Shown here piece after piece: positions 6,666-64,000 of a stretch of 64,000 nucleotides of DNA. Location: the NCBI GenBank assembly GCA_030390025.1, contig CM059432.1, positions 72,356,001 to 72,420,000 on the forward strand, written 5' to 3'. The notes below the pieces were generated by a model, which was not told the DNA's origin, made no database searches, and saw only the letters and a list, made by a program, of their open reading frames with translations. This stretch comes from Squalus acanthias (Eukaryota). How positions within the stretch are numbered: the stretch's first letter is position 1; the number at the start of each line of letters is the position of its first letter. A program made the translations under genes and the position numbers.

Positions 6666-6829
6666 CCTTATAGTGTGTCTCCTTCCAGTGAGTGTGACCA
6701 ACCAGCTCGCACCTAGTGACTCAAGGGTAACCTTGGTAGTAGCCTAGAAGTAATTTGTCTGCCTTGAATTAAGATTATATTAACAACTCTTCAAAGTAGC
6801 CTTTACACAGGGCATTCCACACTGCCCAT

Positions 6830-7346: not shown

Positions 7347-7885
7347 ATTTTAGACTAGCCTTATTTTATTTATTTAATTTGTTCTTTATTCTTTAAGGAA
7401 AAGTCTTTATTCAACTATAAATAATCGTCCAATATCTACTCGTATGATAGAATAACATGGGGGTGTTACAATAGCAACCCCTTGCAACTTGAACCAGATA
7501 TTTGTGTCTTTCACATGTGTGCTGCTTCAATTTCTCTGCAGGTGGATGGAGCAAGCACTTGGTGAGATGAGGCCTGATTTGAATCAATAAGCTGCTTCAT
7601 TCCACACTAAGGTGAATATACAGAGCAGCAGTTGTGATCAGACTCAATTAATTCAAACTGTGCAACATAGCTTTGCATAATGATACAAAATAAAGAATAT
7701 GTCACATTTTCCCACATCCGTGGGTCATTTTCCTTGCCTTAAGGAAGATAACTTATGACCATTCTCTTCTGCACTCCAACCTTCTTGCAGCCTTTTGTTG
7801 CCTGAGTGCCGTGCGGCATTCTGTTTCAAAAACCTCTGCTTGTGTTTCATAACTGCTGCTCTGTGTTATCTCTCACTTGCAGCCA

Positions 7886-18730: not shown

Positions 18731-18734
18731 GTTC

Positions 18735-21949: not shown

Positions 21950-23885
21950 CATAAGAAATAGGAGCAGGAGTAGGCCATTTGGCCCCTTGAGCCTACTCCG
22001 CCATTCAATAAGATCACGGCTGATCTGATCTTGGCCTCAAGTCCACTTTCCCGCCCGCTCCCCATAACCCTTGACTCCCCTGTAGCTCAAATATCTGTCT
22101 ATAAGAACATAATAGAATTCGAAACAATGCGTGTAGAGCAGTTGGTTAGCGGCCCACCACCTTAACCTCTCAACCACTTCGCCCCAGTTGAGTTCAACAA
22201 TTTCAGATCATAACCTCTGCCCCCATTTTTTCACATGGCAGCTGTTGCTAATGATTCTGCCATTGCCATTTACACTTCCTCTAGACCCATCTTTTGTTTC
22301 TTAACTTGTCCCATTACCATCTCCTTTCGACTCGCACCATCATCCCTTTTGTCATTTAATCTCTCCTGCCTTCCACCCTATCACAGACCTTCCCTTTTGT
22401 TCTTTCCTCCCCCCTCTCCCTGCCCCATACTTGCTTAAAACCTGTTAGATCTCTAACTTCTTCCAGTTCTGACAAAAGGTCATCGACCTGAGTTAACTCT
22501 GTTTCTCTCTCCACAGATGCTGCCTGACATCGATCTCTGTCTTGAATATACTCAATGACTGAGCCTCCACAGCCCTCTGAGGTAGAGAATTCCAAAGATT
22601 CACCACCCTCTGAGTGAATAAATTTCTCCTTATCTCAGTCCTAAATGGCCGACCCCTTATTTTGAGACTGTGACCCCTGGTTCTAGACTCCCCAGCCAGG
22701 GCAAACATCCTCCCTGCATCTACCCTGTCAAGCCCTGTAAGAATTCTGTATGTTTCAATGAGATCACCTCTCATTCTTCTAAACTCCAGAGAATATAGGC
22801 CTAGTCTACTCAATCTCTCCTCATAGGACAATCCCCCCATCCCAGGAACCAGTCTGGTGAACCTTCATTGCACTCCCTCTATGGCAAGTATATTCTTCCT
22901 TAGGTAAGGAGACCAAAACTGTACACAATACTCCAGGTGTGGTCTCACCAGGTCCTTATATAATTGCAGTGAGACGTCTTTACTCTTATACTCAAATCCT
23001 CTTGTAATAAAGGCCAACATACCATTTGCTTTCTTAATTGCTTGCTGTACCTGCATGTTAACTTTCAGTGATTAGTGTACAAGGACACCCAGATCCCGCT
23101 GAACACCAACATTTCCCAATCTCTCACCATTTAAAAAATACTCTGCTTTTCTACTTTTCCTACTGAAGTGGATAACTTCTCATTTCTCCACATTATATTC
23201 CATTTGCCATGTTCTTGCCCACTCACTTAGCCTGTCTATATGCCTGTCACAAGCCTCCTTGCATCCTCCTCACAACTTACATTCCCACCCAGCTTTGTAT
23301 CATCAGCAAACTTGGATATGTTACATTTGGTCCCCTCATCCAAATCATTGATGTAGATTGTGAATAGCTGAGGCCCAAGCACTGATCCTTGCGGTACCCC
23401 ACTAGTTACAGCCTGCCAACCCATTAACCAATCCTCAATCCATGTTAGTATATTACCCCCAATCCCATGAGCCCTAATTTTGTTTAATAACCTCTTGTGT
23501 GACACCTCATCGAATGCCTTCTGAAAATCCAAATACACCACATCCACCGGTTCCCCCTTATCTATTCTGCTAGTTACAACCCCAAAAAGCTCTAACAGAT
23601 TTGTCAAACACGATTTCCCTTTCATAAATCCATGTTGACTCTGCCCAATCCTATTATTATTTTCGAAGTGCCCTGTTACCACGTCCTTATTAATAGATTC
23701 TAGCATTTTCCCTATAACTGATGTCAGGCTAACTTGTCTGCAGTTCCCTGTTTTCTCTCTCTCTCCTTTTTTAAATAGGGGGTTACATTTTCTACCTTCC
23801 AATCCGTGGGAACCGTTCTAGAATCTATGGAATTTTGGAAAACGACATCCACTATCTCGATAGCCACCTCTTTCAAAACCCTTTC
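21950..23885 (-). mobile_element. CR1 LINE (RT to 3' UTR), interrupted by a Penelope fragment
   Basis: RT motifs in ORFs 23236..23802, 22865..23056 and 22493..22840; 3' UTR at 21950-22100. Confidence 0.95.
22170..22528 (+). mobile_element. Penelope-like element 3' fragment with damaged hammerhead motif
   Basis: EFNNFRS* ORF end, pyrimidine-rich UTR, then ccagttctgacaaaaggtcatcgacctga...gttaactctg matching 14221-14290 but lacking the GAAA box. Confidence 0.6.
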
Positions 23886-28699: not shown

Positions 28700-31600
28700 A
28701 TCATAGAATCATAGAATGGTTACAGCACAGAAGCAGGCCATTCAGCCCATCGAGCCCATGCCGGCTCTCTGCAAGAGCACTTCAGCTAGTCCCACTCCCC
28801 TGGCCTTTCCCCGTAGCCCTGCGAATTGTTTCCTTCAGGTACTTATTCAATTCCCCTTTGAAAGCCACGATTGAATCTGCCTCCACCGTCCTTTCAAGTA
28901 GTGCATTCCAAATCCTAACCATTCGCTGCATAAAAAAGTTTTTCCTCATGTCGCCTTTGGTTCTTTTGTCAATCAGCTTAAATCTGTGTCCTCTGGTTTA
29001 CAACCTTTCCGCCAATGGGAACAGTTTCTCTCTATCTACTATTGGACACAATAGTCCAGTTGAGGCTGAACCAGTGTTTTATAAAGGTTCATCATAACTT
29101 ACTTGCTTTTGTACACCATGCCTCTATTTAAGAAGCCCAGTATCCCGTATGCTTTTTTAACCGCTTTCTCAACCTGCCGTGCCACTTTCAACGATTTGTG
29201 CACATATACCCCCAGGTCTCTCTGTTCATGCACCCCCTTTAGGATTGTACCCTTTAGTTTATATTGCCTCTCCTCGTTCTTCCTACCAAAATGTATCACT
29301 TTGCACTTTTCTGCGTTAAATTTCATCTGCCACGTGTCCGCCCATTCCTCCAGTCTGTCTATGTCTTCTTGAAGTCGATCACTATCCTCCTCACTGTTCA
29401 CGATACTTCCAAGTTTTGTGTCATCTGCAAATTTTGAAATTGTGCCTTGTACACCCAAGTCCAGGTCATTAATATATATCAAGAAAAGCAGTGGTCCTAG
29501 TACCGACCCCTGGGGAACACCACTGTATACCTTCCTCCAGTCCAAAAAACAACCGTTCACCACTACTCTCTGTTTCCTGTCACTTTGCCAATTTCGTATC
29601 CATGCTGCCACTGTCCCTTTTATTCCATGGGCATCAACTTTGCTGGCAAGCCAATTATGTGGTACTTTATAAAACACCTTTTGGAAATCCATATACACCA
29701 TGACAACCGCATTGCCCTCATCAACCCTCTCTGTTACCTCATCAAGAAACTCGATCAATTTAGAGGCAGATAGCACTAGAGTAAGAAATAGTAAGGTATT
29801 AGGTGGGGCCAGATTAAGAGAGAATACAACAAGGTCTAAGACAGGTTTATAGTGCATGTGTGTAAACGCACGAAGTGTGGTAAATAAGGTTGGCGAGCTG
29901 CAGGCGCAAATAGCCACATGGGAATATGATGTTGTGGCGATAACGGAGACCTGGCTCAAAAAGGGCAGGATTGGGTTTTAAATATTCCTGGATATAAGGG
30001 GGGCGATTATGTCAATGGGGGCGCGTTGGAGGCGGGGCTGCTGCTTGTCGGGTTTTAGTTCCGCCTCCATCGGCTTGTGGCCAACCCATGCTATTTTCCC
30101 TTGATTGACCTTGTTAAGCCCGCCCAGCGGGTCGGCTACCCACCTCCTGGGAAGATGGCATGTAGGCGGGTTGGGGGCGGGATGGGCACCCGCCCCCAGA
30201 TTCTGCCATTTTCCCGGCAGTTCCGCCTCCAAACCCGCCTCCCCAGGGCTGGCAAGATCGCGCCCAAGGTGTTCAGGAAAGATAGAGAAGGAAAGAAAGG
30301 AAGTGGGGTGGCAGTATTGATTAGGGAGAATATTACAGTGCTGGAGAGAGAGAATGTCCTGAACAGGTCAAGGACAGAATCTATTTGGTTAGAGTTAAGA
30401 AATAATAGAGGTGCCATTACACTAGTAGGTATATTCTATAGGCCATCAACTAATGGGAAAGATATAGAGGAGCAAATTTGCAGAGAACTTACAGAGAGGT
30501 GCAAGAACTATAGAGTAGTAATAATGGGGGACTTCAATTATCCTAATATAGACTGGGATAGTAATAGTGTAAAGGGCAGAGAGGGGGAAGAATTTCTGAA
30601 GTGTGTTCAGGAGAACTTTCTTGATCAGTGCGTTTCTGGCCCAACAAGGAAGTAGGCATTGCTGGATCTGGTTCAGGGGAATGAGGTGGGTCAAGTGGAG
30701 CAAGTGTCAGTAGGGGAACATTTAGGGAACAGTGATCATAGTATCATAAGGTTTAGACTAGCTATGCAAAAGGACACAGAGCAATCTAGAGTAAAAATAC
30801 TTAATTGGAGAAAGGCAAATTTCAGTGGGTTGAGAATGGATCTGGCCCAGGTAAATTGGAATCAAAGAATGGCAAGCAAAACTGTAATTGAACAATGGGC
30901 TGTCTTTGAAGAGGAGATGGTTCGGGTACAGTCGAGGTACATTCCCAAGAGGGGGAAAGGTAGGGCAACAAAAGCCAGAGCTCCCTGGATGATGAAAGAG
31001 ATAGAGAGTAAGATGAAGCAGATAAAGAGCACGTATGACAGATATCAGGTTGAGAATACAAGTGAGAATCAGGCTGAATATAGAAAGTTCAGAGGGAAAG
31101 TGAAAAAGAAAATAAGAGGGGCAAAGAGAGAGTATGAAAATAGATTGGCAGCTAATATAAAAGGGAATTCAAAAGTCTTCTATAGGCATATAAATAATAA
31201 ACGTGTAGTAAGAGGAGAGGAGGGGCCGATTAGGGACCAAAAAGGAGACCTACGCATGGAGGCAGAGGGCATGACTGAGGTACTAAATGAGTACTTTGCA
31301 TCTGTCTTCACCAAGGAAGAAGATGCTGCCAAAGTCATAGTGAAAGAGGAGGTAGTGGAGTTGCTGGATGAGATAAAAATTGATAAAGAGGAGGTACTAG
31401 AAAGGCTGTCTGTACTTAAAGTTGATAAGTCACCAAGACCGATGGGATGCATCCGAGGATGCTGAGGGAGGTTAAGGAGGAAATGGCTGCGGTACTAGCC
31501 ATAATCTTCCAATCCTCCTTAGATAAGGAGGTGGTGCCAGAGACCGGAGAATTGTAAATGTTACACCCTTGTTCAAAAAAGGGTGTAAGGATAAATCCAG

Positions 31601-34193: not shown

Positions 34194-34850
34194 ATGGGGG
34201 CTCTACTGGCAGTCCCCCTTACGCTCAAGTATCTTAGGGAGAGGGAGTGGAGGCAGCGAAGAGGATGAAAGATGCACACAGAGGGTGTTCCAAGACCACT
34301 TCTCTCATATACATTTAAGCGAGAAGCAGTGGATTAGGAAGGAGGAGGAGCAGGAGGGCTCTCAACAGGAGGTCTTACCCATCTAGGGTCTTCCGAGAGC
34401 ACTTCTCCTACCTGCACCTAAGTGAGTAGCAGTGTGTTAGGAGGCTTTGCTTCACCAAGGAGGTGGTCACAGAACTCTGCCACCTCCTGCAACCAGACCT
34501 GCAGCCTCAGAGCAGGGTGACCACGGCTCTCCCAGTGGCCCTCAAGGTCACCGTGGCCCTCAATTTCTTCACCAACAGATCCTTTCAGTCTGCAGCAGGA
34601 GACATAGTTAACGTCTCGCAGTTCACTGTCTATCGCTGTCTATCGGATGTCACTGGGGCTCTCTACACCAGGAGAAGGGACTACATTATCTACGAGTGTT
34701 CATGTGGCTTTGCCAGGATAGTGGGCTTCCCCATGGTGCAGGGCGCCATCGACTGCACCCATGTGGCTCTGCGGGCGCCATATAACAATCCTGAGATCTC
34801 CCGTAACCGCAAAGGCTACTACTCACTTAATGCGCAGTTGGTGTGCGGCA
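34194..34850 (+). pseudogene. Harbinger transposase N-terminal half
   Basis: TELCHLLQPDL...KVTVALNFF...GFPMVQGAIDCTHVALRAP...NRKGYYSLNAQLVC. Confidence 0.9.
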
Positions 34851-36064
34851 TGGGGCGGCAGCAGTCTGGACTGGCTGGCTGACAGGCAGTGGCAAGGGCA
34901 ATGGCAGAGTGGCAGGGCTGGGAACAAGAATACTGTCATCTTGAGAGAGGACAGCAGGGTCCTGCGCCACTGACCCACTGCCACTCACCCGGGGGCGTCA
35001 CCTCAGCATTCCTAGCCATCTGCTGGGCTGCTGCGAAACCCTGCAAGCCCTGGTCAACACTGGTAAACCCAGCCACGATGACAGCAGTCTGAGCATGGGT
35101 GGCATTAAGCTGAGACTGCATGACAGCGGTCTGCACTTCCGCTGCAGCACTAAGACGGTGGGTCACTTCTGCCTGTGCTGCAATGGCAGCCGCGACATCG
35201 CACATCACATGCACCATTGTGTCTGGGTCGACACGGTCTCTTCAGGAGTCTTCCATCATTTACATCCTGGAATTCCTGGGCTCCAAGCTCTGCACAGAAC
35301 CCCGTGCAATTTTGGAAGCGGACTCCTCCATGCTCCTTGACATTGCCGAGAGGCTCTCTGACAGGCTTGCCATTGTACCTAGCAATTCGGTGTGCATGCC
35401 CATCACCCTTCTTCTGAAGGCCGCCCCATCGAGGTCCTCATCTGAGTCCTGTGCAGCAGAACTCACCCGCAAACTCCTGGATGTCAGCCTGCCCCCCGCC
35501 TGTCTGCCGCTGCTCCCGCTGGTTACGCGCGACCTTGGCCTGCAAGAGGAAGAGAAGTGTGTGAGTGAGTGTGGTGCAATGTGTTTGGGTGATGTGCCTG
35601 GCATAGTTGAACAACTGTCAGTGTATGCAAGGTGTGAGATGTGGGTGAGTGTTGCAGCAGTGGTAATGTTGCGAGGGTGAAGTGAAGCTCTGATTGTGAG
35701 GTGTGAGTGGTGATCGGCAGAGATTGTTGGTAGGTGAGTACTGGGGGTGTGGTGCATTGAGCAGTGTGTGAGGCTTGTGGTGCAGATGGTGGGATATGGC
35801 ATTTGCTGAAGCCTTCACTCACCTTGGCCTGCCATGTGAGGTCATTATACTTCTTGCGGCTCTGGATGGCTGACCTTGGCACCACAGTGCTGGCCGTGAC
35901 ATGGGCGGCTATCTCCTGCCAGAGCCTTTGAGAGGTGTGCAGCGAGAGCTTCTGCCAGACTGTGGGAAGAAGACAGCCCGCCTCCTCTCCACGGCCTCGA
36001 ACAGTGCCTCAAGAGCTGCGTCAGAAAACCTGCAGGCTCTCTCCCTTTGAGGACGCTCCGCCAT
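34850..36064 (-). pseudogene. Harbinger Myb/SANT gene (exon 1 36064-35823; exon 2 from 35539)
   Basis: MAERPQRERACRFSDAALEALFEAVERRR...PRSAIQSRKKYNDL|gtgagt; cag|AKVARNQREQRQTGGG; Ala-rich coiled-coil tail; frameshifted. Confidence 0.85.
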
Positions 36065-36766
36065 GAGTTTGCAGTACCTTCTTCTTGCAGCTACAGTTCT
36101 GAGTGGCTTGACAATGAGGTGCTGTAGCATAAATGCACCTCCCCTTTAAGTACTAAATAAAGCCTGTACCACATATGACTGGGAATTAGACTGGACCTGA
36201 TATTGGCCCACCTGTTGAGCGATAAGCCAATGAGCAGCAGTTTTAGCGCTGAAAATCAAAACTACAATCACATTAATGAGGACTGAGCATGAATTTTGTG
36301 TGTTCCTAGACCATTTTGACCTGGTGCAGCTTAACATCATTGGGTCTTAACACTGCCCGTTTCGTGGCCATATCCAATTTCCAGGCCAAAGCCTTTAAAG
36401 GCCATGGGGGAGAAATTCGGTATCGCCCCGTTTGGGGTGCGATTATCGGCCGGGCGCAAAGTTTAGCGCCTGCCGCTAATTATCGCCTCCGACTGCAAAC
36501 TTGGCTTTTATCGCCCCTGGAGGTGATTGGAGCACTAAATCAGGCGCTGCACACCTGTCTTAAGGCGCAAAGGCTGAGGAGCGAGGCGCTAACTCAGACC
36601 GTGGGCGCAGCGCAGGTGATGTCAGTTAGCGATGGAACACAGACACACTGGCGCCGGACAGTTCTTAAAGGGGAGGGTCGATCTTGCTCTCCAGACACAC
36701 CCTGCTCATTGGAGCCTTGAATCTCGGCCTGGAGAGACCTTTGACTACATTTTCCAGCCAAGGACT

Positions 36767-38530
36767 ATGGAGAGGGTGAGAGAACGAGCTCAGCGCTTCA
36801 GCGAGCGGGCCTTGGAGGCTCTGGTTGGCGCGCTGGAGCGCAGAAGATCTATACTCTTCCCTGAGAGTGGCAGGAGGCCTTTGCCGCGCGACTACAGAAG
36901 AGTGTGGAGGGAGGTGGCTCAACACGTCTCCTCCAGGAGCATGGTGCCTAGGACCCATATACAATGTCGCAAAAAGTTCAACGACCTCACTCGGGTCGTC
37001 AGGGTGAGTGGCTTTTTTTCAATACCTCTCCATTCCTCCATCTCAACCTCACTCTATGGCCAGATGGTCTTAAAACCCCAATGCCCAACACTCATCCAAC
37101 ACCTATGGCCCTCTCATGTAACACACACACACATTCCACACTTTGCATACAGTAAGGGCTATTCAACTATAGGAGGCACATCAGGCAAGACCATGGCTGT
37201 ATATTTACTCAGACGCCGTCCTTTTTCTTGTAGGCCAAGCTATCTCATAATAGGAGACAGCAGCAACGGACGGATGGAGGGCGGCCTCAGCTGCAGATCG
37301 TGAGGCGCGCGTCCACAGGATTGTGGCAAGCCAGGTGATCGGTCCCGTCGCCCCTGGAGAGGCTGACCCCGTTCTGGACAGCAATGGTAAGGTGATCACC
37401 TTTTTCTCCTCTCTCATTCCACTTGTCCCTCACAACACCAGCCTTTGACACTTTCAATCCAACTTACTAAATCGCTGCACTCCTTCCTCCCTTACTGCCC
37501 CCCTGTCCTCATGCTAAAGCCACTCTTGTACCTCCCTGCTTTCAGATGGTGATTCACCAGCTGAGGAGACGGGCCCTCAAGCTGCCAGTGGGAGTGAAGC
37601 TGCAGGCGAGGAGGAAGAGGAAGCCGGAGCATCAGCGCCACCCTCTCCCGAGGAAGCCCATGCCTACACTGGGAACACGTCTTCCCTGGAGGGGAGCGGG
37701 GGGAAGGGTCTGATGAGGGTGAAGCTCCAGGACCCAGCGGGCTGCAGCAACACGATGTGGCTAGGGAAGCTCGGGGGCCTTCTCCCCGGAGGGAGAGTAG
37801 GCCAGTGAGTCCTGCTGCACTGGACACAGAGGAGGAGCAGCTCATCACTGAAATGAACACCCAGGCGGTGGACATACACACTCAGCTCATGGGTGCAGTG
37901 GCAAGGGTGCCCGAAACCATTGATGCACTGGCAGGGAGTGTGGAGCACTTCGCTGCAGCACAGGCGGATGCCACGCTAATGCTTAGTGCTGCAATTCAGT
38001 CACTGGCTGCTGTGATCCAATCTCAGACTGGTTTCATGCAGACTCAGATTGAGGCCACGCGAGCACTGACTGCTGCCATTGTCGCTGGTTCGGACACATT
38101 TCCCCGGGGCTCTCACCGCACCGCAGCAGGCCAGCAATCTGTGCTCCAGCAGATTGCTCCGGATGCTGATGTGCTGCCCCGTGGGAGTGCCAGTGTGTCG
38201 GTCGAGCAGGGAGTTGCTGTCCTCTCTCAAGATGACAGCATTCCTGCTGCCACCACTGTCACTTCCCCATTGCACTTGCCACCGCCTGTAGCCCAGACTG
38301 CTGCCGCCCATGCAGAGTTGGTGTAGTCTGCAGCCGGGCCCTCCAGGCCCAGAGCTGGTCGAGGCCGCCCTTCAAGGGCATCTGCAGTCTCAGGTGCTGA
38401 CAATCAGCAGCCTTCCACCAGCCTTGCTGCAGCCACTGGGGTCCCATTACGGAGGAGCAGTAGGGTGGGAAGGGGGGAAGTGCGCAAGGGAAGGAGATCA
38501 CCCTCGAAGGGCAAAAAGTAGGAGGTGTGA
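36767..38530 (+). pseudogene. Harbinger Myb/SANT gene, three exons (36767-37003, 37234-37386, 37546-~38530)
   Basis: MERVRERAQRFSERALEALV...VWREVAQHVSSRSMVPRTHIQCRKKFNDL; GT-AG introns; frameshifts in exons 2 and 3 and a TAG at 38324-38326. Confidence 0.85.
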
Positions 38531-38832
38531 CGAAATGTTGGTCGATTTTTTATAAAAGGCCGAGGTTCGCGTTCAAACTTTTGTTTAGTGTTTTGGACAT
38601 TATCTCCAGGTTGTGAGAACCAGTTATGTTAATGAATGATTTTTTGTGTTTGTTTCTATTAGTTTGTCATGAAGAAATGACACACACAGAGTTTGTAAAA
38701 TAAATAAGTTTTTGTATTCAAAATGTACATGTTTGGTCTTTGGAATCATTGCTGCCTTGGCCGGCTTAGGGGTTGCGGGTTGGTTTCATTCATGTTGTTC
38801 TCCATGGCAGAAGCCATTTCCTCAGCAGGGGC

Positions 38833-39985
38833 CTAGAAGCAGCTTGCTATCAGCCGTTGACGGACGGCTCTTGCAGTTTCAACATTGTGGGCCTCCCTCC
38901 CGTCTTGGTGCTGTTGATGATCATCCTCCTCCTCTTCCTTCTCCTCTCTCCTCCTCCTCCTCCGGTGGTGCACCAAGGTCTGGTGGCATTGGCTGGGTCC
39001 TGAGGATTGCCAGGTTATGCAGCATGCAGCACACAACTATGAAGAGGGAGACTCACTCAGGCGAGTATTGCAGGGCTCCTCCTGAGTGGTCCAGACAGCG
39101 GAACCGTTGCTTGAACATGCTGATCGTCTGCTCAATGATGTTCCTGGTGGCGAGATGGCTCTCGTTGTACCGCAGCTCAGCAGGGGTGTTGGGGTTACGG
39201 AGCGGTGTCATCAGCCAGGTGCAGAGTGGATAACCCTTGTCCCCGAGGAGCCAACCACTTGGCTGATGCGGTGCCTGGAAAAGTTCTGGCACAGCAGTCT
39301 GGCGCAGGATGAATGCATCGTGGCTGCTGCCAGGATAACGGGCATTGACAGCGAGTATCAGCTGTCTGTGGTCACAGACCAACTGGACGGTTAAGGAGTG
39401 GAACCCCTTGCGGTTGTTGAAATCCTTTGCATTCTCATGCGGTGCACGCAATGCCACATGTGTGCAGTCAATGGTGCCCTGCACCATGGGGAAGCCCGCT
39501 ATCCTCGCAAAGCCCAATGCGCGTTCATGCTGTTTGGCCTGGGTCATTGGCGTCTCCTTTTATAGAGGGCCTTTGTGACCTGACGGATGCAGCAATGGAC
39601 CGCGAACTGGGAGATATTGGCGATGTCCCCAGTAGCTGCTTGAAAGGAGCCGCTGGCATAAAAGTTCAGAGCCACTGTGACCTTCACTGCCACCGACAGA
39701 GACGTCCTGGTCCTCAGTAGAGGCTGAAGATCTGTCTGCAGCGGGCGGCAGAGCTCAGTGACTATCTCCTTGCTGAAGCGCAGCCTGCGCAAACACTGCT
39801 CCTCAGACAAATGAATGTAGAAGAATTGTTGGCGAAATACCCTGGGAGGGTAAGGTCTCCTGTACAGAGGCCTGTTGGCCCTCCTCCGTCTGGCCATGAT
39901 TGCCACTCTCTCTCCCTGCGTCTATGTTGCCTCCGATTCTGCAGGCGCAGGACGACGCCCCGAATCAGTGCAGCCCCCAAAGTCT
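38833..39985 (-). pseudogene. Harbinger DDE transposase (HARBI1-like family)
   Basis: ORFs 39544..39906 and 39053..39547: LRRLRFSKE, YASGSFQ, GTIDCTH, NRKGFHSL, PGSSHD, LGDKGYP, IEQTISMFKQRFRCLD; frameshifts and stops. Confidence 0.95.
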
Positions 39986-44781: not shown

Positions 44782-46108
44782 GGCTGGAATTTCCCCCTAA
44801 AAAAACAGGTGTGTTTGGGGCGTGGGGGTAGTTAAATTGTTAAAAATGGGATTCCTGACCTGATCCCGCCTCCAACCCGCCCACTTCCAGTTTTAACAGA
44901 GGCGGGGCGACCAACCTGCTCCCAGGGGAGCGGTACGTCAATTTAAATATCATAATGAGGCTGGAAGCCTCTTTTTTCACCTCCATTTTGAATTTAACTG
45001 CATATGGATGGGTTTCACACAATTTGTGAAACCCGGCAGTTAAACCGAGGCAGGGACTCCTGGATCCAGGAAGTAAGTAGCTTTATACCTACCTCCTGGA
45101 TCCAGGGTCCCTGCCTAACCCACCCCCCGCGATTGGAGACCCCCCCCACGAGGCCTCTGATCGCCTTCCAAGTCCCCCCCGGCATCATGAGGCCTCCCCT
45201 CCTCCCACCCCACAGATGATTTTCAGAGGCCGGCCACAATCCTCCGGTGGCCGACTCTGATCCTCTCTCTCCCCCCCTGCCTATCCCCGATCCCCAGCCG
45301 ACCAGCCCCGCCGATGCTCCGGCCGACTCCCCCACGATCCCCGACTGCCGATTCCCACCACCCCTCCCGCAATCCCGGACTGGCGATTCCCAGCCCCCCC
45401 CCCCGCGATCCCCGACTGGCGATTCCCACCCCCCTCCCGCGATCCCCGACTGGCGATTCCCACCCCCCCTCCCGCGATCCCCGACTGCCGATTCCCAGCC
45501 CCCCCCCCGCGATCCCCGACTGCCGATTCCCAGCCCCCCCCCGCGATCCCCGACTGCCGATTCCCCCCACCCCCGCGATCCCCGACTGCCGATTTCCCCC
45601 CCCCCCCGCGATCCCCGACTGGCGATTCCCAGCCCCCCCCGCGATCCCCGACTGCCGATTCCCCCCCACCCCCGCGATCCCCGACTGGCGATTCCCAGCC
45701 CCCCCCCGCGATCCCCGACTGGCGATTCCCACCCCCCCTCCCGCGATCCCCGACTGGCGATTCCCACCCCCCCTCCCGCGATCCCCGACTGGCGATTCCC
45801 AGCCCCCCCCGCGATCCCCGACTGCCGATTCCCCCCCACCCCCGCGATCCCTGACTGCCGATTCCCAGCCCCCCCCCCGCGATCCCCGACTGGAGATTCC
45901 CAGCCCCCCCTCCACCACGATCCCTCCCCTGGACTGACCCCTCACATCTGCAGCCTACCCACCTGCAGCCAGCCAGCCTCTCAATCTGGTTGGCTGCGGG
46001 CAGGAATCCGAGGCCTCAAATTCAAATTAGGCCCCGCCGATAAAGTTGGCAGGGCCGGTGGGAAACCCGGGAGCCTCGTGTCCCCAACCCTTAAGATAAA
46101 TCTGTCCA
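44782..46108 (+). mobile_element. Harbinger-type MITE carrying an expanded minisatellite
   Basis: Starts GGCTGGAATTT and ends AAATCTGTCC; flanks of the array are similar to 55362-56010. Confidence 0.65.
45328..45915. repeat. C-rich ~31-33-bp minisatellite
   Basis: Unit CCGCGATCCCCGACTG(G/C)CGATTCCC(A/C)(G/C)CCCCC, about 18 copies with variable C-run length. Confidence 0.95.
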
Positions 46109-50644: not shown

Positions 50645-53075
50645 ATAGAAACATAAAAACATAGAAGATAGGAGCAGGAGTAGGCCATTCGGCCCCTCGA
50701 GCCTGCTCCGCCATTTAATGAGATCATGGCCGATCATCCAAATTCAGTACCCTGTCCCTGCTTTCTCCCCATATCCCTTGATCCCTTTAACCTTAAGAAA
50801 TATATCTATCTCCTTCTTGAATATATTTAATGAATTGGCCTCACCTGCCTTCTGTGGTAGAGAATTCCACAGGTTCACCACTCTCTGGGTGAAGAAATTC
50901 CTCCTCATCTCAGTCCTAAATGGCTTACCCCTTATCCTTAGACTGTGACCCCTGGTTCTGGACTCCCCCGCCATCGGGAACATCCTTCCTGCATCTAGTC
51001 TGTCTAGTCCTGTTAGAATTTTATAAGTTTCAATGAGATCCCCTCTCATTCTTCTAAACTCTAGCGAATACAAGCCCAATCGTCACAATCTCTCTTCATA
51101 CGTCATTCCTGCCATCCCAGGTATCAGTCTGGTGAATCTTCGTTGCACTCCCTCCATGGCAAGAACATCCTTCCTCAGATAAGGCGACCAAAACTGCACA
51201 CAATACTCAAGGTGTGGTCTCACCAAGGCCCTGTACAACTGCAGCAAGACATCCTTGCTCCTGTACTCGAATCCTCTCGCTATGAAGGCCAACATACCAT
51301 TTGCCTTCTTAACTGCCTGCTACACCTGCATGCTTACCTTCAACGACTGGTGCACAAGGACTCCCAGGTCTCGTTGCACTTCCCCTTTTCCCAATCTATT
51401 ACCGTTCAGATAATAATCTGCCTTCCTGTTTTTGCCACCAAAGTGGATAACCTCGCATTTATCCACATTATACTGCATCTGCCATGCATCTGCCCAATCA
51501 CCCAACTTGTCCAAATCATACTGGAGTTTCTCTGCATCCTCCTCACAACACACACGCCCACCCAACTTTGTGCCGTCTGCAAACTTGGAGATATTACATC
51601 TAGTTCCCTCATCTAGATCATTAATATATATTGTGAATGACTGGGGTCCTAGCACCGATCCCTGCGGTACCCCACTAGTCACTGCCTGCCACTCGGAAAA
51701 AGACCCGTTTATTCCAACTCTTTGCTTCCTGTCTGCCAACCAGTTCTCTATCCAAGTCAGTACCTTACCCCCAATCCCATGTACTTTAACTTTGCACGCC
51801 AATCTCTTATGCGGGACCTTATCGAAAGCCTTCTGAAAGTCCAAATACACCACATCCACTGGTTCTCCCTTATCTATTCTACCAGTTACATCCTCAAAAA
51901 ATTCCAGTAGATTAGTCAAGCATGATTTACCTTTTGTAAATCCATGTTGACTTTGTCCGATCCTGTCACTGTTTTCCACGTGCTCTGCTATTACATCTTT
52001 TATAATGGACTCTAGCATTTTGCCCGTTTTCTCTCTCCCACCTTTTTTAAATAGTGGGGTTACATTAGCTACCCTCCAATCCATGGGAACTGTTCCAGAG
52101 TCTATAGAATTTTGGAAGATGACCAGCAATGCATCTGCTATTTCTAGGGCCACTTCCTTAAGTACCCTAGGATGTAGGTTATCAGGCCCTGGGGATTTAT
52201 CGGCCTTCAATCCCATCAATTTTCCTAACACCATTTCCCTACAAATACTGATTTCATTCAGTTCTTCCCTCTCATTAGACCCTATGTTCCCCGACACCTC
52301 TGGGAGGTTATTTGTGTCCTCCTTTGTGAAGACAGAACCAAAGTATGTATTTAATTGGTCTGCCATTTCTTTGTTCCCCATTATAAATTCCCCTGATTCT
52401 GACTGCAAGGGACCTACGCTTGACTTCACCAATCTTTTTCTCTTCACATATCTATAGAAGCTTTTACAGTCAGTTTTTATGTTCCCTGCAAGCTTACTCT
52501 CATATTCTATTTTCCCCCTCTTAATTAATCCCTTTGTCCTCCTTTGCTGAATCCTAAACTGCTCCCAATCCTCAGGTTTGCTGCTTTTTTCTGGCCAATT
52601 TATATGTACTCTCCTTGGATCTTATGCTATCCCTAATTTCCCTTGTTAGCCACGGTTGAGTCACCTTTATTGTTTTATTTTTATGCCAAACAGGGATGAA
52701 CAAATTCTGTAGTTCATCCATGCGATCTTTAAATGTTTGCCATTGCCTATCCACCGTCAACCCTTTAAGTAACGTTCCCCAATCCATCCTAGCCAATTCG
52801 CGCCTCATACCATCATAGTTTCCTTTATTTAAATTCAGGACCCTAGTCTCTGAGTCAACTACTTCACTCTCCATCTTAATGAAGAATTCTATCATATTAT
52901 GATCGCTCCTCCCCAAGGGGCCTCGCACAACAAGATTGCTAATGAATCCTTTCTCATTACATAATACCCAGTCTAAGATCTCTAGTTGGTTCCTCGACAT
53001 ATTGGTCCAGGAAACCATCCCGTATACACTCCCGGAATTCTTCCTCCACAGTATTGTTACTAATTTGGTTAGCCC
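50645..53075 (-). mobile_element. CR1 LINE ORF2 (end of APE through RT) and 3' UTR
   Basis: ORFs 52572..53315 (part), 51320..52447, 51083..51295 and 50744..51079 with standard RT motifs; acatagaa tail. Confidence 0.95.
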
Positions 53076-54330
53076 ATAGAACCATAGAAGTTTACAGCAT
53101 AGGAGGAGGCAATTCGACTCAATGGGCTGGATTTTGATACTGGGGACGTGATGGAGGCGGGACTCCCACTTTTTGGGTTGTAGTCCCGCCTCCATCGACT
53201 TGTGGCCAACCCACTGTATTTTCCCTTGATTGACCTTGTTGAGCCCGCCCAGTGAGCTCAGCAGGCCAATTAAGGGCCACCCCGCAACAGGTGACGTCAC
53301 AGATTGACATTTCATCTGTCAAGAGCTTTTGACAGATGAAATATCAGCATTTGACAGCTCTGTGAAGCTGTCAAACACTGACAATTTGTCTTCTGACTTG
53401 AGTCCTTCCTCTCAGGCTGAGTTAGAAATCATTCCAGCACAGAAAACAGAGGCTGAAACTTTTGACAGCACCACGGCCTTTCTGCTTTCTGTACCGGTGA
53501 GATTTCTGACTCCCGAGAACTGAAGGGCTGACACCTGCAGGAGGAAGTTAAGGTAAGTAAAACTTTTCCCCACACTTTGCACTTACCTTACACATTTACC
53601 TTTGCACACATGCACCCATCACTCACCTGCCCACCGGACATATCGACCCCTCCAACCCCTGCAGACCCACGGTCCGCCTCGCTAACTTGGCGTGGTTGGC
53701 ACCTGTCGGGAAGCCCACATTTCAGCTTTCAAAATAGGGATTAGGCAAAAAACTGCCTGTTAACTACCTGTTAACAGGCAGTTAATTGTCACTAATCCCC
53801 TTCCCGCCTCGGGGAGGCGGGTCCCAGCACAGGTCGGGTACCCACCGCCAGCGGGTTGGGGTCGGGACCCCCGAATCTGCAACTTTAACCCCCCACACGC
53901 CTCCAAACCCGACTCCACAGGTCAATGAAAATCCAGCCCATTGTGTCTGTGCGGACTCTTTGCTAGAGCAATCCATAACTAATCCCACTCTCCTGCTCTC
54001 TCTTCATTGCCCTGCATTAGCATCTGCTTTAAATGTTTATTTACTTTCCTGTAAAAGATGCAGTGACCTGTGTCTCAACTATTCCATGGAAAAGTATTTA
54101 ATGCATTAACAGCTCACTACGTAAAGAAATTTCTGCTTACCCCCTCCTCACTTCCGGTGACTATTTTAAATTGATGACCCCTTATGGCTGGTGACACCTC
54201 ATCACTGACTCCCCAGCCAGAGAAATAGTCCTTTCCTATTCACCAGATCAAAATCCTTCATCATTTTAAAAGAATCAAATGTTTTCACTTCTCTGCTCCA
54301 GTGCAAATAGTTTCATTATCTCATGTTTCA
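53076..54330 (-). mobile_element. Older CR1 3' end, split by a MITE
   Basis: catagaaccatagaag...gaggcaattcgactc continues after 53942 into a decayed CR1 3' region. Confidence 0.6.
53124..53939. mobile_element. Harbinger-type MITE
   Basis: TIRs GGGCTGGATTTT at both ends; TSD AAT/ATT; left part similar to 29999-30265, right part to 49567-49730. Confidence 0.85.
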
Positions 54331-56500: not shown

Positions 56501-57894
56501 TATTTTAGAGACATTAGTGTACGTTGTTGATGCTGCAAATATTTGCCCTTCGGCCTTTTGTACATGTGTATGGTGCTCTAGAAATAGAAATAGTTCACAC
56601 TGATTTAAGTCAGTATCTGAAATAGCAACATTTGAATCATTTTTAGCTTTGACTTCAGTTTCTAATCCATACCTATTGGGAGGGAATTGTTCATGCGTAG
56701 ACCTTTTTAAACCCTGTGTGCTCATCTTTGCATTATATCAATGTACTACGTACTTGAAAACACTTTAACCTGCGAATGATGATATCATACAAATGCTTAA
56801 CCCACTTGGATTAAACTAACAGAGGTATTAATCCCATTTAAAATAAACAGTAATGCCCCCCATTAAAAAAGTACAGAGGAATTTGATAAAAGCAAATTAA
56901 ATATTCATGCAATATTGCTCTATTTTCCAGACTTGCATGTGATCTATAAGAACATACAGAATGAGAAAAAGTCATTCAGCTCATCGAGCACGCTTTCTTT
57001 TAAAGGCCCATACAACTTGCCCTGTCATGGACACTATCCAATTAATTCAATCTCGAGGGATTAATCTGCCACAGGTCAAACATCTCAGAAATCAAAGCTG
57101 AAATTTCTCTCGGAACCTCATATAAGTATTTTCCTGAGTAGAATTTAGATGCAAGATTAAAATCAAAGTAATTATCAGTCAGTTAAGCTTACTTGTAGGA
57201 AGCAAAGAGACACTGACATTTTCTTCTACACTGATGAATCAGATCATTGTCTCAGCACGTATCCTGTTGACAATGGCCAAAAGTAAAATGTGCTCGGGGC
57301 TACTTTTTGCTCTCACTGGGTCTGTTTAATTCCAGGACTGTCAGAAAACAAATTCCTGGTGGTCAGTTAAACCATCTGGATTTAATGTGTGTCTGCTACA
57401 ATAAGCCAGTTACAGCAACCCTTCTGCTTTTCTACATTATAACCTCAGCTTTATGTGTCTGCATAGCCTGAGAACAGGAAACAAATGCAGGAAATGCACA
57501 AAGTTTTAATCTTCTCACCTCAATGAATCACTGAAATCGCAATGTATTCATGGCAGTGTGGATGCAATGTTCTCCAGCTTTCTGAAGATATATTAGTTTG
57601 TTATTTTCCAGATTTTCAACATTCATTCTTTTAGATACTGTGGACAATCTTGCTCATTCATCAGTTGTATATATTTAGATTGGATATAGGAAGAAAACAA
57701 TGATTTCAGAATATATTGGTTTTGTCAACAAAAGTAACATTGGATGTTATGAAAACTTGAATGATTGAACTGATGTGTGAAATAACTTTAATACGGATGC
57801 CTTCCTCCTGGTTGGAGAAGAAACAAGACAGCAGAGTTTCACTGTCATTTCTATTGGCTTCACTAAAGTCTACTTATAAAAACCTGAAAACAAT

Positions 57895-58615
57895 TGTAAG
57901 AGGTTCTGATTGTCTGACAGTTTATAGAGTTCAGACCCGTGGAACAGACAACACAAAACCCAATGAATCTGTGAAACTTCTTTTACTTAAAAATCAACAA
58001 GAGGTTACAAGTAAATTACCAGAATACAAACTGTACTCAATTCATGTACTTATTACAAGCAAGCATCGAAAATCATTTACTTTCTCAGGTGATTATAAGC
58101 AAAACCACATACATACTATTCACCAGATGAGAGGTCAATTCAGCGATGATAGACGTATGACTAACTTTAACTGGCAACTGACCAGGTCGCCATCTACTAT
58201 AGCCCCGACTGCAGCGCCGAATGTTTTGAAACAGTACCTTTTATACCCCAAAATTTGGCAACCCTGCATACGTGTCCCTAACTATACGGCATAATGGTTG
58301 GCAGTTGTTTCCCAGACCCTTTTATCACTAGTCCATTAGGCAACTCTGGGCCTTCAAGGCTAGGTACATTCCATAGACTGAGGATGTTTCTGTTATTGCA
58401 CTGATTTCACAGTTCCCACAGAACTTCAATAAGCTTGTTTTCCATATCTGTTGAAAGACAATTGGCAGCTTTTACAGCTTACAAGTCAAACAGTTTATTT
58501 TACAAAGTTCTCACAGCAACCAGTCTTTGTCCTCGCGAAGCATGATGGTAAAATTTGGTCACTTTTAGATTCAGTCAAATGGAGATTCAGTCAAGTTTAC
58601 CATGACAGTGTTACA
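57895..58615 (-). mobile_element. Putative 3' LTR (~720 bp) of an env-bearing retroelement
   Basis: Minus strand starts TGTAAC just after a purine tract GAGGGTGGA (58621-58629), contains TATAAAAG (58238-58245) and AGTAAA (57982-57987), and ends CTTACA. No second LTR is present to confirm it. Confidence 0.6.
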
Positions 58616-58653
58616 TATTATCCACCCTCAAGTGTCTGAACCTGAATTTAAGG

Positions 58654-60580
58654 TCATATGTTGTCGTCGTCTTCTTCTTTCTGGGTCTTCTGTAACAGCT
58701 TGACCAATGCTTGCTGCTTGTGGCGTCTGTTGACTCGACAAGTTATTATTAATAAGTATAACACAATCACCAACTGAACAACGACTAAAACATGGGAGAT
58801 AATTCTTATCCAGGGGTGTACCTCGATATTCATACCGATATCCCACCAAGACGAATCATCCCCAATCTTAGATATTTTTTCGCGTAGGTTCCGGTTTTCC
58901 TGGGCCAGGGTATAAAAGTACTTTTGGGACTGACTAACTCATTGCATTAACTCTACCAGGTGTTCTGGCAGAGGTGGAATGTCATAGCCGAATTGAGTCA
59001 CATACTGGTGTAATTGCTCTTTTAATTTAACTTCTACAGCGATATCTACTTGCCTATGCGAATAAATGCTTAATAAAACCCGCGCCCCAAGTCTTACAGG
59101 TTGGACTGGGGTAAAGCAAAAAGTTCCCGCCGCAATGGGACAAGTCAGGTTGTTACTGTACTGGTATTCCCGGTGTATGGTGGTGACACAATACTCACCT
59201 TTCCCTTGGTACGCAGATTGTACGGGGAAAAGCTGTCCTGCAACCACTTTCATGGTGCAGTTCCATTCTATCCCATCCCAATCAAATCCGCATGCAGGTG
59301 CTGCGTGTTCTACCACGTCATAAGGGCAGATGAATGTATCCCAAGCTTGAGCGCACCCGGTAAGATCTGAGGCCACCCAAGTGGTTGGATCCACCCGGGT
59401 CGCATACTGCGGTGGTTCGTCATACATTACTAAGTGGTCTCTCTGACGTATTCCTATATTCTTCACGCGGAATAGAGGATTTGGGGTTGCCTTTTCGTGC
59501 AGGATGGGATAATACAATACCATCCCTAATAAGGTGATGTCGTTCTGTTTCTGCAAATGGCATTCATGTTTCACCGGGTGCACCTGTACCAACCCCCTGA
59601 CTTGGCACATAGTTATGGTAAATTGATAAGTGGACATTGCCCTCAGGTGTCGATCAGTCACCCACAAGGGAAATTTCCCCTCAGCAATGCTCTGCAGGTT
59701 TTCACGGGCTTGTTCCACTAACCAAGATCCATACATTACACACACATCATTTCGTGCGGCCTCACTAGAGGCATTCAGATTCTCCTTCAAAATTTGGTTT
59801 ATCTTTTTAGCATAGGATTCTAAATAGTTAACCACGTCCTGCAAATGAATGGTCAGAATTTGGACCTCCTTCAATTCCTCTTGTTCCAGACCATTCATTT
59901 TATTCAGAATTTCCTTTAGACGATTTCTAACTGCCTTTACGGATTGATCCAAATCAGCCAAATCAAGACTATTAACGAGGGAGGTTCCGGTATTAAAAAC
60001 AGTGGCTGTATCATTTATCAGACCCCGCCGTGTACTGATATGGTCCCCTTTAACCCCGTAACCGACGTTGTTTCCTTCAGTGATCTCAGTATTTTTCCCA
60101 AAATTATTGTTAAATCCATTACCATCTCCTGAGCCCTTGCGATATAATGGCTCTTTCCCAAAATCCTTTTATTAATTCCCGCACCATTCTCCCATAAAAC
60201 CGCGCTGTTTCTGGTTTGCACCAGTTCAGTATTCCCACCTCACTCGGTTTCAATATCACTGGCACCACCTCGTGATGCACATCATGGTACAATATCATCC
60301 GAGTTGGGTTACCACGAACCCATTGGTCGGTCCCAGGGTGTGTTGGGGACGGACAGCCTGGGTTTCCTGTTGTTCTTCCTGCGATTGTGTTTTATTTGTA
60401 GGGGAGGGGAAGTTTAGGACGGACTTTCAATTCCACTGTGTGTATTATTCTGTTTTTACATTCCAGCACATGATAATGTGTGCAACCCTCTGCTCCCTCC
60501 CCATCCACAAACCCCATTGGTAGGGACCCCTGTCCTCTATACTATTCGCTTGAATACTTTTCCCGCTGTACAATGTCTTC
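58654..60580 (-). pseudogene. Endogenous viral envelope / class I fusion glycoprotein
   Basis: STRR|GLINDTATVFNTGTSLVNSLDL, heptads, Cys-rich 340-aa ORF 58939..59961. Beyond the TGA the frame continues with a second heptad, SSWWDIG, TM IISHVLVVVQLVIVLYLLII and a basic tail to stop at 58654. Confidence 0.8.
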
Positions 60581-61269
60581 TGTTCAATTCTATTATTCAA
60601 TTACTGGGCTCAAGTCAATGATAACTCTACTTGTAAAACAGTGCAAATACAAGAGGATTATTGACTGACTGATTCAGGATGGATGACATTGCCTGAAATT
60701 GACAATTAGAGAAAAGCCTACTTCATTTTAAGAATCCACTATTATTAATGCACTTATTGTCAGTGAGGTGCAGATCTGACATTGTGTTTAGCTGTGTCTT
60801 TTCTTATCTACCCACAGTCTCATGAAAAAGGGATGATCGATCATTCTTGACCCTGGAAATAACTATCTAATGCCAAATTGTGACGAACTTCGCCCCGGCT
60901 GATTTAATTAATACCACTGGGAGTTGCCAAATAGATGAATTTCCCTATCCTCTCTGCTGTAAATTGCATTGTCAGTAATTCTGGAATGTGCTTACTAAGA
61001 TGATTTTTTTTTCAAATGATTGAATGATAGTTTACAAAGACTTTGGAAAATGATTGCCTAAGTAGTGTATAATGGATAAAAATTGTGCAATTAAACATCA
61101 ACCTACTGGAAAATGAGAAACATTTTACAAATTTAATTATACATCCATCTACAAATCTTATATAATCCACCTTCTTGAACCGTTCCCTTTCTTACTGCAG
61201 TAGTGTACTTGTGTAGATACTCTAATTCATGTGTTTCTCCATCAACATTTCTTTCACTCTTTCTCTCTA

Positions 61270-61425
61270 AGCATAACACAACACTCTTTGACTAAATTTT
61301 GGGTCATTTGTCCTTATATCTCCTTCTATGGCTTGGTGTCAAATTTTTATTGATAACACTCCTTTGAAGCACGTTGGGATATTTTACTACATTAAAGGTG
61401 CTATATAAATGCAAGTTGTTGTTGT
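61270..61425 (+). mobile_element. L2 3' tail
   Basis: Matches 10125-10270; ends aaaggtgctatataaatgcaagttgttgttg. Confidence 0.75.
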
Positions 61426-61427
61426 GA

Positions 61428-62235
61428 TTAAAAAATGGACACCAAGCCAAAAGAGATATTAGAATGGGTGATGAAAAGCTGGATCAAACATGTGGGTTTT
61501 AAGGAGGGTCTAAAAGGAGAAGAAGGAGATGGAGTGGCAGAGGGTTTAGGGACTGAATTCCAGAGTGCGGGGCCTAAATGGCTGAAGGCATGACCGCCAA
61601 TGGTGTGGTCAATGCAGGGGGGAATGCACAAGATGCCAGAATTAGAGGAATGGAGAGTTCAGGGGGGTTGTAGGCTGAAGGAGGTTACAGAGATAGGCAA
61701 TGGCAAGGCCATGAATGGATTCAAACACAAGGATGATAATTTTAAATTCAAAGCATTAGTGGTCTGAGGAGCTAAGCTAGGTTAGCGAGGGCAGGATTTA
61801 TGGGCAAGCAGGATTTTGTGCAAGATGGGATACAGGTAGTAGAGTTTTTGATGGGCTAAAGTTTACAGTGGATGGAAGATGAGAGCCCAGCCAAGAGAGC
61901 ATTAGAACAGTTCAGTCTGAAGGTGACATGAATGAGGGTTTGAGCAGAACATGAGCTGAGATAGGGGTAGAGGCGGGTGATGTTATGGAGGTGGAAGTAG
62001 GTGGTCTTTTTGATGTGGAGGGTATCAGCTCAGCTCATGATCAAATAGAATGTCACGGTTGCAAACAGTCTGTTTCAGCCTGAGTAAGTGACCGGGAGGG
62101 AGACGGGATTGGTGGCAAGGATATGGAGTTTGTGACGGGAGCAGAAGACAATGGCTTCAGTCTTCCCAATGTTTCGCTGGAGGAAATTGCGGCTCATCCA
62201 AGACAGGCTAACAACACAGAGGTAGTGGAGTGATC
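61428..62235 (-). mobile_element. L2 LINE ORF2 3' fragment
   Basis: WMSRNFLQRNIGKTEAIVF and IGGHAFSHLGPALWNS. Confidence 0.8.
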
Positions 62236-64000
62236 GAGAGGGCTGCTGGAGACTCCACACACCAAGTCCATGTCCTTGGGTGGATGTCAGGAGAAACTGT
62301 CTTAGGAAACAGTTCCCCAATGAGAGATCTAGTTGATACTCAACATTGACTGTTCTCATACATGCACTGCTACAAAAAGCCATCGGTAAAGACTTGGGAA
62401 CAAGTCAACAGCCCATCGCCTCCAATAGAAAATAGTACATAGTGTGTAGAAGGGGTAAGGGGAAAAAGTTAATACAATATATATATATTTTTTAAGTCTA
62501 TTAGGCATGGTTAAATTCTTGTCACATGTATGGCTCTAGCGACTAAACAAAGATAATCAGAAGCAATCAGAGAGCAGATTCTGAGGCTTGATCACTATAG
62601 GAACCATCAACACTGACAACTACATGGAAACATTCAGCAAGGTTTATACTTTTTAAAATATTAATTAACCTCCTATTCACTTAACTTTTTTTTAACCAAT
62701 TAACAGCTGTAAACTAAAGCAAAAATAATCATAACACAGCACTGCATTACAGGATATATTTCATGAATGAGATTGGATCTCATAATTTGCTTTAATCTGC
62801 AGTGTGTGTTTGTGTGAGTTATGGGCCTTTCACACATGAATAAAAAATATTAACAAGCCTCAACTAAAGCAATATCCTACATGTACTGTAGCACCAAATG
62901 TGAGTCCAATACACAGTTCATTCTAGGTACCATCATAATAAAGGCAGCTGCCTAACTCAGACTGCTGCCACATCACAGGTTTCATTTTCGGAATGATGCA
63001 CAAAAATTGCCTGGATGATGAGATTTACATCTAATTTAAATCTGCCCGCTGAGACTAATGGACACCTAAGGAACAACGGCAATCATTGCAGCCATCATAA
63101 TACTAGCATCTGCACTACCATGACAACAGAAAAAGCTGGCCACATGCTAATTCTGCTGTCTTGCCATTTGAACAAAGGCACCAGACTCTGATGAAAGCAG
63201 CAAAACACTCAAAGACCCTGCCAGGAGTTTTTATGACAGTTTTCCTTCCAAGTCCTTATACTGGGGGGGAGGGTTTACATTACCAACTGTTAATCCAGAG
63301 CAGAACTCATGCTGGTAAAATTATGCAACAAAGGTTACTGACACACATTAATGCAAACCCTCTTGTAATTGCTGCTGGAATGATTGACTTTGGATTCCCT
63401 TATTATTGTAACCCTCTGGGGACTGGTTTCATGTCAGAATGAATGCACATTCAGGACTATATAAATACAGGCCGATAAAACTGGTAATTGTAAGAGCCAA
63501 TTTTAGCATTGGCCCAGGACCCCCGTGTAGGTCGGGCTGTGCATGGCTTGCACAGGGCTCCAGAAAAATAAACATGTGAGTGGACTTCACATTATGCAGT
63601 GTGGTAAAGCTCAGTTATGCTCAGGCAAATGAAGTGCTGGCACAGTGCTAGCACCAGCAGCACTGTATGTTGAGCATATTGTCGACCCCACTGAGTCATT
63701 CATTCATTGACTCTGAAGCATGCATTGAATTGCAAGTCCATACCAATACTGGAGGTGAATGATACATATGTTCCAACTGTCTGGGTTTCATGCTGACTGT
63801 CAGCGTTTTTGAAAGCGGATCAGTGTGTCCGTGTCTGCCGACAAAAGTTAGTGCAGCTGGGCCTCCCTGAGCCCCCACTCCCATTACTTCTGAGTCCAGT
63901 ATTTAACACACCGGACACATGGCACTGCCCCTTCACTGTACTCCCTGCACTAGTGGCCAGGATTGCCACCTACAGTTTACAGAAACAGCAATCCCAGCCA

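Follow-up and report, generated by a model that had tools for sequence, protein, structure and literature searches.

Lokiretroviruses carry an envelope glycoprotein (Env) with an F-type layout, and this Env was reported to lack significant overall similarity to the Env of canonical retroviruses by Wang and Han (PMC7947760). That paper set out four possible ways in which retroviral env arose, and independent capture was later preferred because loki Env is unlike canonical Env (PMC9040795). Structures of foamy virus Env show an F-type fold as well (PMC11468914, accessible part). The SnRV-like endogenous retroviruses (ERVs), or clade Huo, occur in sharks, coelacanth and amphibians and have a deep, class III-like position and a CCHC Gag; an F-type Env is mentioned nowhere in the accessible portions of PMC4422223, PMC6001957, PMC4977317 and PMC12193657. 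As far as their accessible sections go, a survey of anamniote Env (10.1101/2021.11.23.469661) looked for gamma- and beta-type Env only, and a survey of errantiviruses (PMC13524379) defers its vertebrate results to a later report. Subscription papers aside, a literature search turned up no account of an F-type Env carried by an SnRV-like virus or by any other canonical retrovirus outside the foamy group, and the accessible parts of PMC12440569, PMC10699275, PMC13709493, PMC12583693 and 10.1101/2024.03.17.585361 hold nothing on the type of Env reported here.

The window (the whole stretch of 64,000 nucleotides analysed here) contains the decayed 3′ end of an endogenous retrovirus, comprising part of env and the 3′ LTR and encoding no working Env (Table 1). 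An earlier note, made from the letters of the window, had taken a 340-aa ORF to be the middle of a longer frame, and this was borne out: on the minus strand, 409 codons without a stop run from 60168 to 58942 and, with an X placed at the TGA, the env frame continues to a stop at 58656–58654. That TGA had been ascribed to decay, and the stop is indeed particular to the window copy. STRR is followed by GLINDTATVFNTGTSLVNSLDL (window env, minus strand). Both the basic site and the fusion-peptide-like segment described earlier are thus present, but the segment is weakly hydrophobic (KD 0.31 over residues 49–67) and the site, as read from the sequence of the window copy, lacks the Arg expected at P4 for furin; an R-X-[KR]-R site occurs in 12 of the 22 other env copies that cover this position. 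The Cys-rich core contains all four sequons listed in the note (NDT, NAS, NCT and NLT) and the window Env has 11 Cys. Beyond the TGA, the second heptad region, the WW motif (residues 441–442 of the read-through), the TM segment and the short tail lie where they had been proposed. Hydrophobicity over 19 residues peaks in the segment that begins at residue 456 (KD 2.81), 407 residues past the cleavage site, in agreement with the approximately 400 aa claimed between fusion peptide and TM.

Table 1. Features of the retroviral locus in the window, with positions counted from the first letter of the window
Feature	Positions	Strand	Remarks
Broken 5′ env remnant	60169..60575	-	end of probable Ig-like SU module and F2-like segment
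409-codon open part of env	58942..60168	-	begins just 5′ of the 32-nt deletion at ~60150
Basic SU/TM cleavage site, STRR	60025..60036	-	incomplete furin consensus in the window copy
Putative fusion peptide, weakly hydrophobic	59968..60024	-	aligned to the fusion-peptide region of loki Env
Predicted long helices, HR1 / domain III	59683..59967	-	helices H51-92 and H101-162 in the AlphaFold model
Cys-rich beta core	59074..59613	-	predicted match to F domains I and II
Copy-specific in-frame stop, TGA	58939..58941	-	codon open in 25 of 28 other covering copies
HR2, WW motif (58848-58843), TM segment (~58803-58741), short tail and stop	58654..58938	-	
Purine-rich PPT-like tract	58616..58629	-	adjoins the LTR; same context in copy L039
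3′ LTR, 721 nt, ends TGTAA...TTACA	57895..58615	-	~5% from each LTR of L039
Candidate 4-nt target-site duplication, ATTG	57891..57894	-	the four letters recur at the truncation point (60574-60571), where the env sequence matches too

The two compensating frameshifts of the earlier note were both found in four of four comparisons with other copies: one is a 1-nt indel (~60308), the other a 32-nt deletion (~60150), and together they cancel in frame, although the second had been placed about 15 nt away, at ~60135. Two further breaks, at ~60405 (4/4 comparisons) and ~60515 (3/3 of those reaching the position), had been overlooked, as had the 3′ LTR and the truncation. Similarity to other copies stops at ~60575, the truncation point of the element, and the upstream flank beyond it is single-copy. 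A search of 57001–64000 and the next 10 kb brought up no capsid, gag, RT or RNase H, and AATAAA counts and a bacterial promoter scan gave chance levels only. The 60575 junction is spanned by contigs from three of four sequencing runs, carrying three organism labels and differing from the window at 0/896, 33/913 and 46/967 positions; the first run may come from the window's own species. The insertion and its truncation are therefore old and common to the three sampled organisms. A single run guessed to be RNA yielded short family-level pieces, none of those listed crossing the junction, and is uninformative on expression.

A gamma-type Env had been discounted in the earlier note and was rejected here as well, since a motif scan of the read-through detected no CX6CC, CXXC or ISD-like motif and the TM subunit is ~455 aa. 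The F-protein-like architecture that the note proposed instead agrees with the predicted fold. The AlphaFold model of the 504-residue read-through was weak overall (pLDDT 64, pTM 0.34, TMq 0.20–0.25), and its best PDB matches in Foldseek were HMPV F (E 1.7e-8) and foamy Env 8rm1 (E 4.1e-8); BFVD matches of the Env model, among the 50 rows listed, comprised F proteins, lispi/arlivirus and chu-like glycoproteins and baculovirus F. A second model, of a 283-residue core and built on an alignment that included loki rows, was better (pLDDT 76, pTM 0.53) and matched foamy Env 8rm1 at E 1.2e-7, with TMq up to 0.52 for RSV F. The Foldseek comparison of the read-through model could have favoured a cellular protein or a gamma/epsilon Env, but every PDB row listed for it was an F protein or foamy Env. 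VIA ranked F or foamy Env in its top 14 rows for the core model (best Z 7.9, rmsd 7.3, 234 aligned); Z values were below 8 throughout and are not decisive alone, the evidence lying in the concordance of the ranked lists. In the ESM Atlas, PF00523 ranked first (0.93, 205 shared features) with low recognition, which is weak support, and Baculo_F and Gypsy clusters were also (weak) neighbours. Pfam PF00523 and the foamy Env families gave no match to the window-family Env, and sequence searches of Pfam and the PDB with Env returned coiled-coil noise only. The window-family Env is predicted to be a fusogen of the paramyxovirus-F type (class Ib). Its predicted TM-subunit fold, with helices and two Cys-rich beta domains, is like that of foamy Env (8rm1, 8ozh; PMC11468914, accessible part) and of paramyxo- and pneumovirus F, which also have ~400 aa between fusion peptide and anchor; identity to these proteins is 10–15%, and the carrier of the window lineage differs in having a CCHC Gag and an in-frame gag-pol.

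Alignment of the window-family Env with natural loki Env by hhalign gave a probability of 98.3% (E 1.9e-14, 339 columns), and BLASTP gave 21% identity over 263 aa (E 6e-7). The profile score against loki Env was 64.6 bits, while 500 shuffles reached at most 5.2. The natural loki loci used here were collected with loki Pol and recognised as such from their RT motif and from a comparison by eye with the supplement of PMC7947760. By these alignments, the window-family Env is homologous to lokiretrovirus Env. The two share a GP-x-G N-terminal motif, the cleavage site, the fusion-peptide region, the helices and four core Cys, and the lokiretroviral combination of RXKR-type cleavage, fusion peptide, coiled coil and TM is present at the family level, although the site is incomplete in the window copy. 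The window family differs from loki in an extra N-terminal region. Closer Env homologues (21–35% identity) were found in six shark genera, a skate, a ray, two frogs and the coelacanth (hosts named for 15 of 19 proteins looked up, from 33 matches, plus P0155), and a profile search of 5.8 billion proteins gave one stingray protein among the best 7997 candidates scored. The closest of the named homologues belong to sharks, a skate and a ray, which supports a probable elasmobranch host. Homologues of Env and of the linked Pol occur in the same host groups. Two sawshark gene models, P0023 (Niban 1-like) and P0028 (cadherin-related 5-like), hold pieces of Env and are probably chimeric predictions. 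With its linked canonical Pol (see below), the window lineage contradicts the lack of similarity between loki Env and canonical retroviral Env stated in the accessible text of PMC7947760.

A search of the genome with the Env core gave at least 118 matches, at least 84 of them at 57–100% identity (family A, the window included) and at least 34 at 43–48% (family B); these are lower bounds, 112 of 9983 candidates having been scored. The structure of family A is seen in L039, a two-LTR copy of ~7.1 kb with a 4-nt target duplication, which reads LTR, PBS, coiled-coil gag piece, non-coding stretch, 3′ part of integrase (IN), env and LTR. An LTR-PBS-gag-pol-env-PPT-LTR plan with a short target duplication was thus found, as in canonical Retroviridae, with family A being RT-less. 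Its PBS is complementary to tRNA-Lys(ttt) genes and is thus of the tRNA-Lys(UUU) type. There are 291 tRNA-Lys(ttt)-type 3′ ends in the genome, many arrayed at ~1.78-kb spacing (C29, C2208, C1484 and others), and two were checked by ARAGORN. The earlier note had called for copies linked to gag-pol; Pol is present in related families B, D and E, but none of 14 family-A loci matched CA, RT or RNase H. In nine of these the gag piece and IN are both present, so the gap between them is real there. LTR pairs of family A differ by a K2P distance of 0.014–0.081 (5/5 copies measured). Among 12 further LTR loci, six aligned end to end, and four of those six have exact 4-nt duplications; family A makes 4-nt target duplications.

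Across 30 env copies (435 pairs), median dN/dS was 0.37, with 0.33 for shared and 0.69 for private changes. A comparison of env (0.42) with the IN remnant (0.43) and the gag remnant (0.47), for which shifted-frame controls gave 0.77–1.08, showed the remnants to be equally low, and the apparent purifying selection on env copies fits repeated recombination with a helper virus and a working env alike. Defective, helper-dependent ERVs and env-less “superspreader” ERVs are known as classes; like these, family A multiplied without CA-PR-RT-RH, and families C and D have pol but are missing most of env. Family A differs in that it retained env. Sequence resembling the family-D post-integrase region lies at ~1400–2260 of L039, upstream of the IN remnant. 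This arrangement points to a rearranged or recombinant origin of family A.

The Pol proteins of families B, D and E contain RT, tether, RNase H and integrase (PF17917/PF17919 and PF00075). Such a dual RNase H (tether plus RH) is also found in loki Pol, but it is common to all retroviruses and not diagnostic for loki. A CCHC knuckle (zf-CCHC) was detected in Gag above the cut-off in family B and below it in family E, and in family E (2/2 copies checked) gag and pol share a frame that one TGA interrupts. The RT motif of the related families, LPQGFHNSP, is SnRV-like and unlike the CPFG of loki. An RT tree was built with IQ-TREE from 53 rows hand-picked among 210 RT-bearing proteins; it includes one foamy virus, is without fish foamy-like ERVs, alpha-, beta-, delta- and lentiviruses, Odin and CmiERV-I, and its labels other than SnRV, SFV and loki were assigned in the present analysis by motif and source name. 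In this tree, families B, C, D and E form one clade with frog and coelacanth Pols (91/94; mixture model 92), placed in a basal polytomy inside the canonical retroviruses (100/99; mixture model 98), with loki apart (100/99; 99) and gypsy/Metaviridae separated at 100/100. P0156, a turtle Pol, and P0160 pair up as another basal clade within the canonical retroviruses, in the RT tree as in the IN tree.

The IN tree (166 columns) places family A as sister to D (99/98) and then E (100/100); with a midpoint root and no CGIN1 row, the clade containing A appears as a short-branched grade beside loki. From its IN and the similarity of its gag to those of D and E, family A likely belongs to the canonical clade. 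The Env tree groups A with B instead (98/98), so env has been exchanged within the clade, and A may have had a different RT. The tree comparison proposed in the note thus gave a canonical RT clade distinct from loki, and Env and IN trees that place A differently. Family D (L071–L074, L086, L087) and family C (L051, L057, L059, L061, L067) have kept gag-pol and share internal env deletions, the converse of family A, which is RT-less but keeps env; the family-A LTR had no match in the family-D loci examined. Family E (L075–L077, L090, L115–L118) is young, with pol frames of 1485–1511 codons, long env frames, another primer site and terminal repeats of ~1.7 kb that are 99.1–99.8% identical (2/2 copies checked). 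Taken together, we consider it probable that the window family carries an F-type, loki-homologous Env and is likely to be part of a deep-branching, non-foamy canonical clade of elasmobranchs, frogs and coelacanth.

Compatible with this explanation, and differing from it in how new the lineage is, is the reading that the family falls within the already known SnRV-like ERVs (clade Huo, to which elephant shark CmiERV lineage I belongs) and that SnRV itself has such an Env, in which case the Env annotation alone would be new; we give this reading slightly less than even standing. The RT motifs are alike by eye (PQGFH.SP.IFHQ, LLQYVDD, KINPKK), an AU test did not separate the clade from SnRV (p 0.257), and the accessible parts of PMC4422223, PMC4977317 and PMC6001957 report SnRV-like ERVs from elephant shark, coelacanth and amphibians. 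RT motifs and hosts (sharks, coelacanth, amphibians), the deep class III-like position and the CCHC Gag are features that the window lineage shares with clade Huo as described in the accessible parts of the four reports cited above. In both best trees, however, SnRV Pol (P0162) falls outside the clade (branch 94/92 and 89), and SnRV IN lies elsewhere too. SnRV Env was absent from the 33 Env matches, as far as the 19 looked-up names show, and from the 50 BFVD rows, and its tail has 136 residues as against ~28 in the window Env. The window clade may be counted among the known SnRV-like ERVs, or stand beside them.

It is a good deal less probable that the element is a cartilaginous-fish member of clade Tu, the foamy-like ERVs. 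Family-B RT has foamy Pol as its best PDB match (E 5.7e-39), the Env core finds its best fold match in foamy Env, and the AU test did not reject joining the clade to simian foamy virus (p 0.062); yet the RNase H is nearest to MLV/XMRV in the PDB, no foamy Pfam family was matched and the best trees do not group the clade with foamy virus. The CCHC Gag of families B and E and the gag-TGA-pol frame of family E also stand against it. Foamy viruses are not known to have a CCHC knuckle in Gag or gag-pol in one frame, Pol being made apart from Gag.

The lokiretrovirus-like lineage proposed in the note is supported as regards Env homology but not as the identity of the element, since the linked Pol lies among canonical retroviruses. 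A true lokiretrovirus, which would be the first known from cartilaginous fish, would account for this homology, for an IN with the SRWGLP-type motif also present in loki IN and for the dual RNase H, and it meets no contradiction from an RT in family A, which lacks one. We nevertheless regard it as very unlikely: Env identity is 21% to loki compared with 38–46% to same-genome families with canonical RT, the IN of A groups with D/E at 100/100, the RT linked to the window lineage is LPQG-type, and the AU test rejected joining the RT clade to loki (p=0.00015). A loki RT query found nothing above 43% identity among 150 scored genome matches, and loki Pol had no match in the viral contig collection. 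The outcome of the RT query is in line with the negative shark screen of Wang and Han, in which loki was found in 0/3 Orectolobiformes genomes according to the accessible text of PMC7947760; the window lineage thus occurs in a host group where that study found none.

Co-option of the 409-codon frame by the host as a secreted Env ectodomain is slightly less credible still. The frame is long, its stop lies just before HR2 and TM, and the insertion is common to three organism labels, but the signal peptide and 5′ LTR are gone, the upstream part has four frame breaks, and private changes among the copies are near neutral (dN/dS 0.69, with 85 stop codons). Least plausible of all is the env-capturing Ty3/gypsy (errantivirus-like) element of the earlier note, or a stray Mononegavirales F gene, to which the lispi/arlivirus and baculovirus F rows of BFVD and the weak Atlas neighbours might point, given the LTR, PPT, PBS and IN context and linked Pols with tether and RNase H, LPQG-type RT and CCHC Gag, inside the canonical retroviruses and separated from gypsy at 100/100.

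Returning to a canonical lineage with an F-type Env, the following history would fit. From the predicted fold and what is known of class Ib proteins, the ancestral Env would have been a trimer cut at the basic site by a furin-type protease. A probable Ig-like N-terminal module, suggested by the appearance of its motifs and the UniRef name of P0004, may have bound the receptor; HR1 would then extend and insert the fusion peptide, and HR2 zip back into a six-helix bundle, merging the membranes. Family A spread in the RT-less, defective ~7.1-kb form seen in L039. Such a genome would need Gag-Pol from a helper virus, with which family A presumably multiplied. As the shared junction shows, the window copy integrated before the split of the three sampled organisms. 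The 5′ ~4.4 kb may have been lost in a microhomology deletion whose ends were the 4-nt target duplication and an identical tetranucleotide in env, as the recurrence of the four letters at the truncation point suggests. The copy then acquired the one stop and the four frame breaks observed in it.

Elsewhere in the window, decayed LINE copies lie at 50744–53318, 29099–31465, 11321–12298, 17693–18747 and 22529–23712, with an RVT_1 match at 51320–52621; we take them to be CR1-like. The GC-rich region 34701–39519 contains inverted repeats (34701–34845/39375–39519 and 34875–34994/38177–38296), and a frame at 36620–37303 presumably resembles the Myb/SANT protein of Harbinger transposons. A perfect nested inverted repeat at 7884–8269, with 141-nt and 54-nt arms that are 100% complementary, arose either by fold-back duplication, recently, or as an artefact of the assembly. 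At 6045–6709 and 45254–45946, spurious long frames result from GC-rich tandem arrays whose units measure 19 nt and ~35 nt.

The locus itself is an ordinary fossil, a dead fragment usable as a dated orthologous marker. Of interest is the lineage, which our results suggest to be non-foamy, to lie among the canonical retroviruses and to carry a Loki-type Env. With this second, non-foamy canonical lineage whose Env can be aligned with that of loki, the origin of env becomes testable by ordinary Env and Pol trees: congruent trees would favour one ancestral F-type Env, and a nested position a swap. An F-type Env may be ancestral among retroviruses. We tentatively raise the possibility, which we hold to be appreciable but the less likely outcome, that the clade is the earliest-branching canonical lineage (sharks, rays, frogs and coelacanth) and has retained the ancestral Loki-type F Env together with a loki-like integrase. 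If so, it would form a bridge between lokiretroviruses and other retroviruses, the preference in the literature for two separate captures of env would be overturned, and the common ancestor would have had a class Ib F-type Env that was later replaced in orthoretroviruses.
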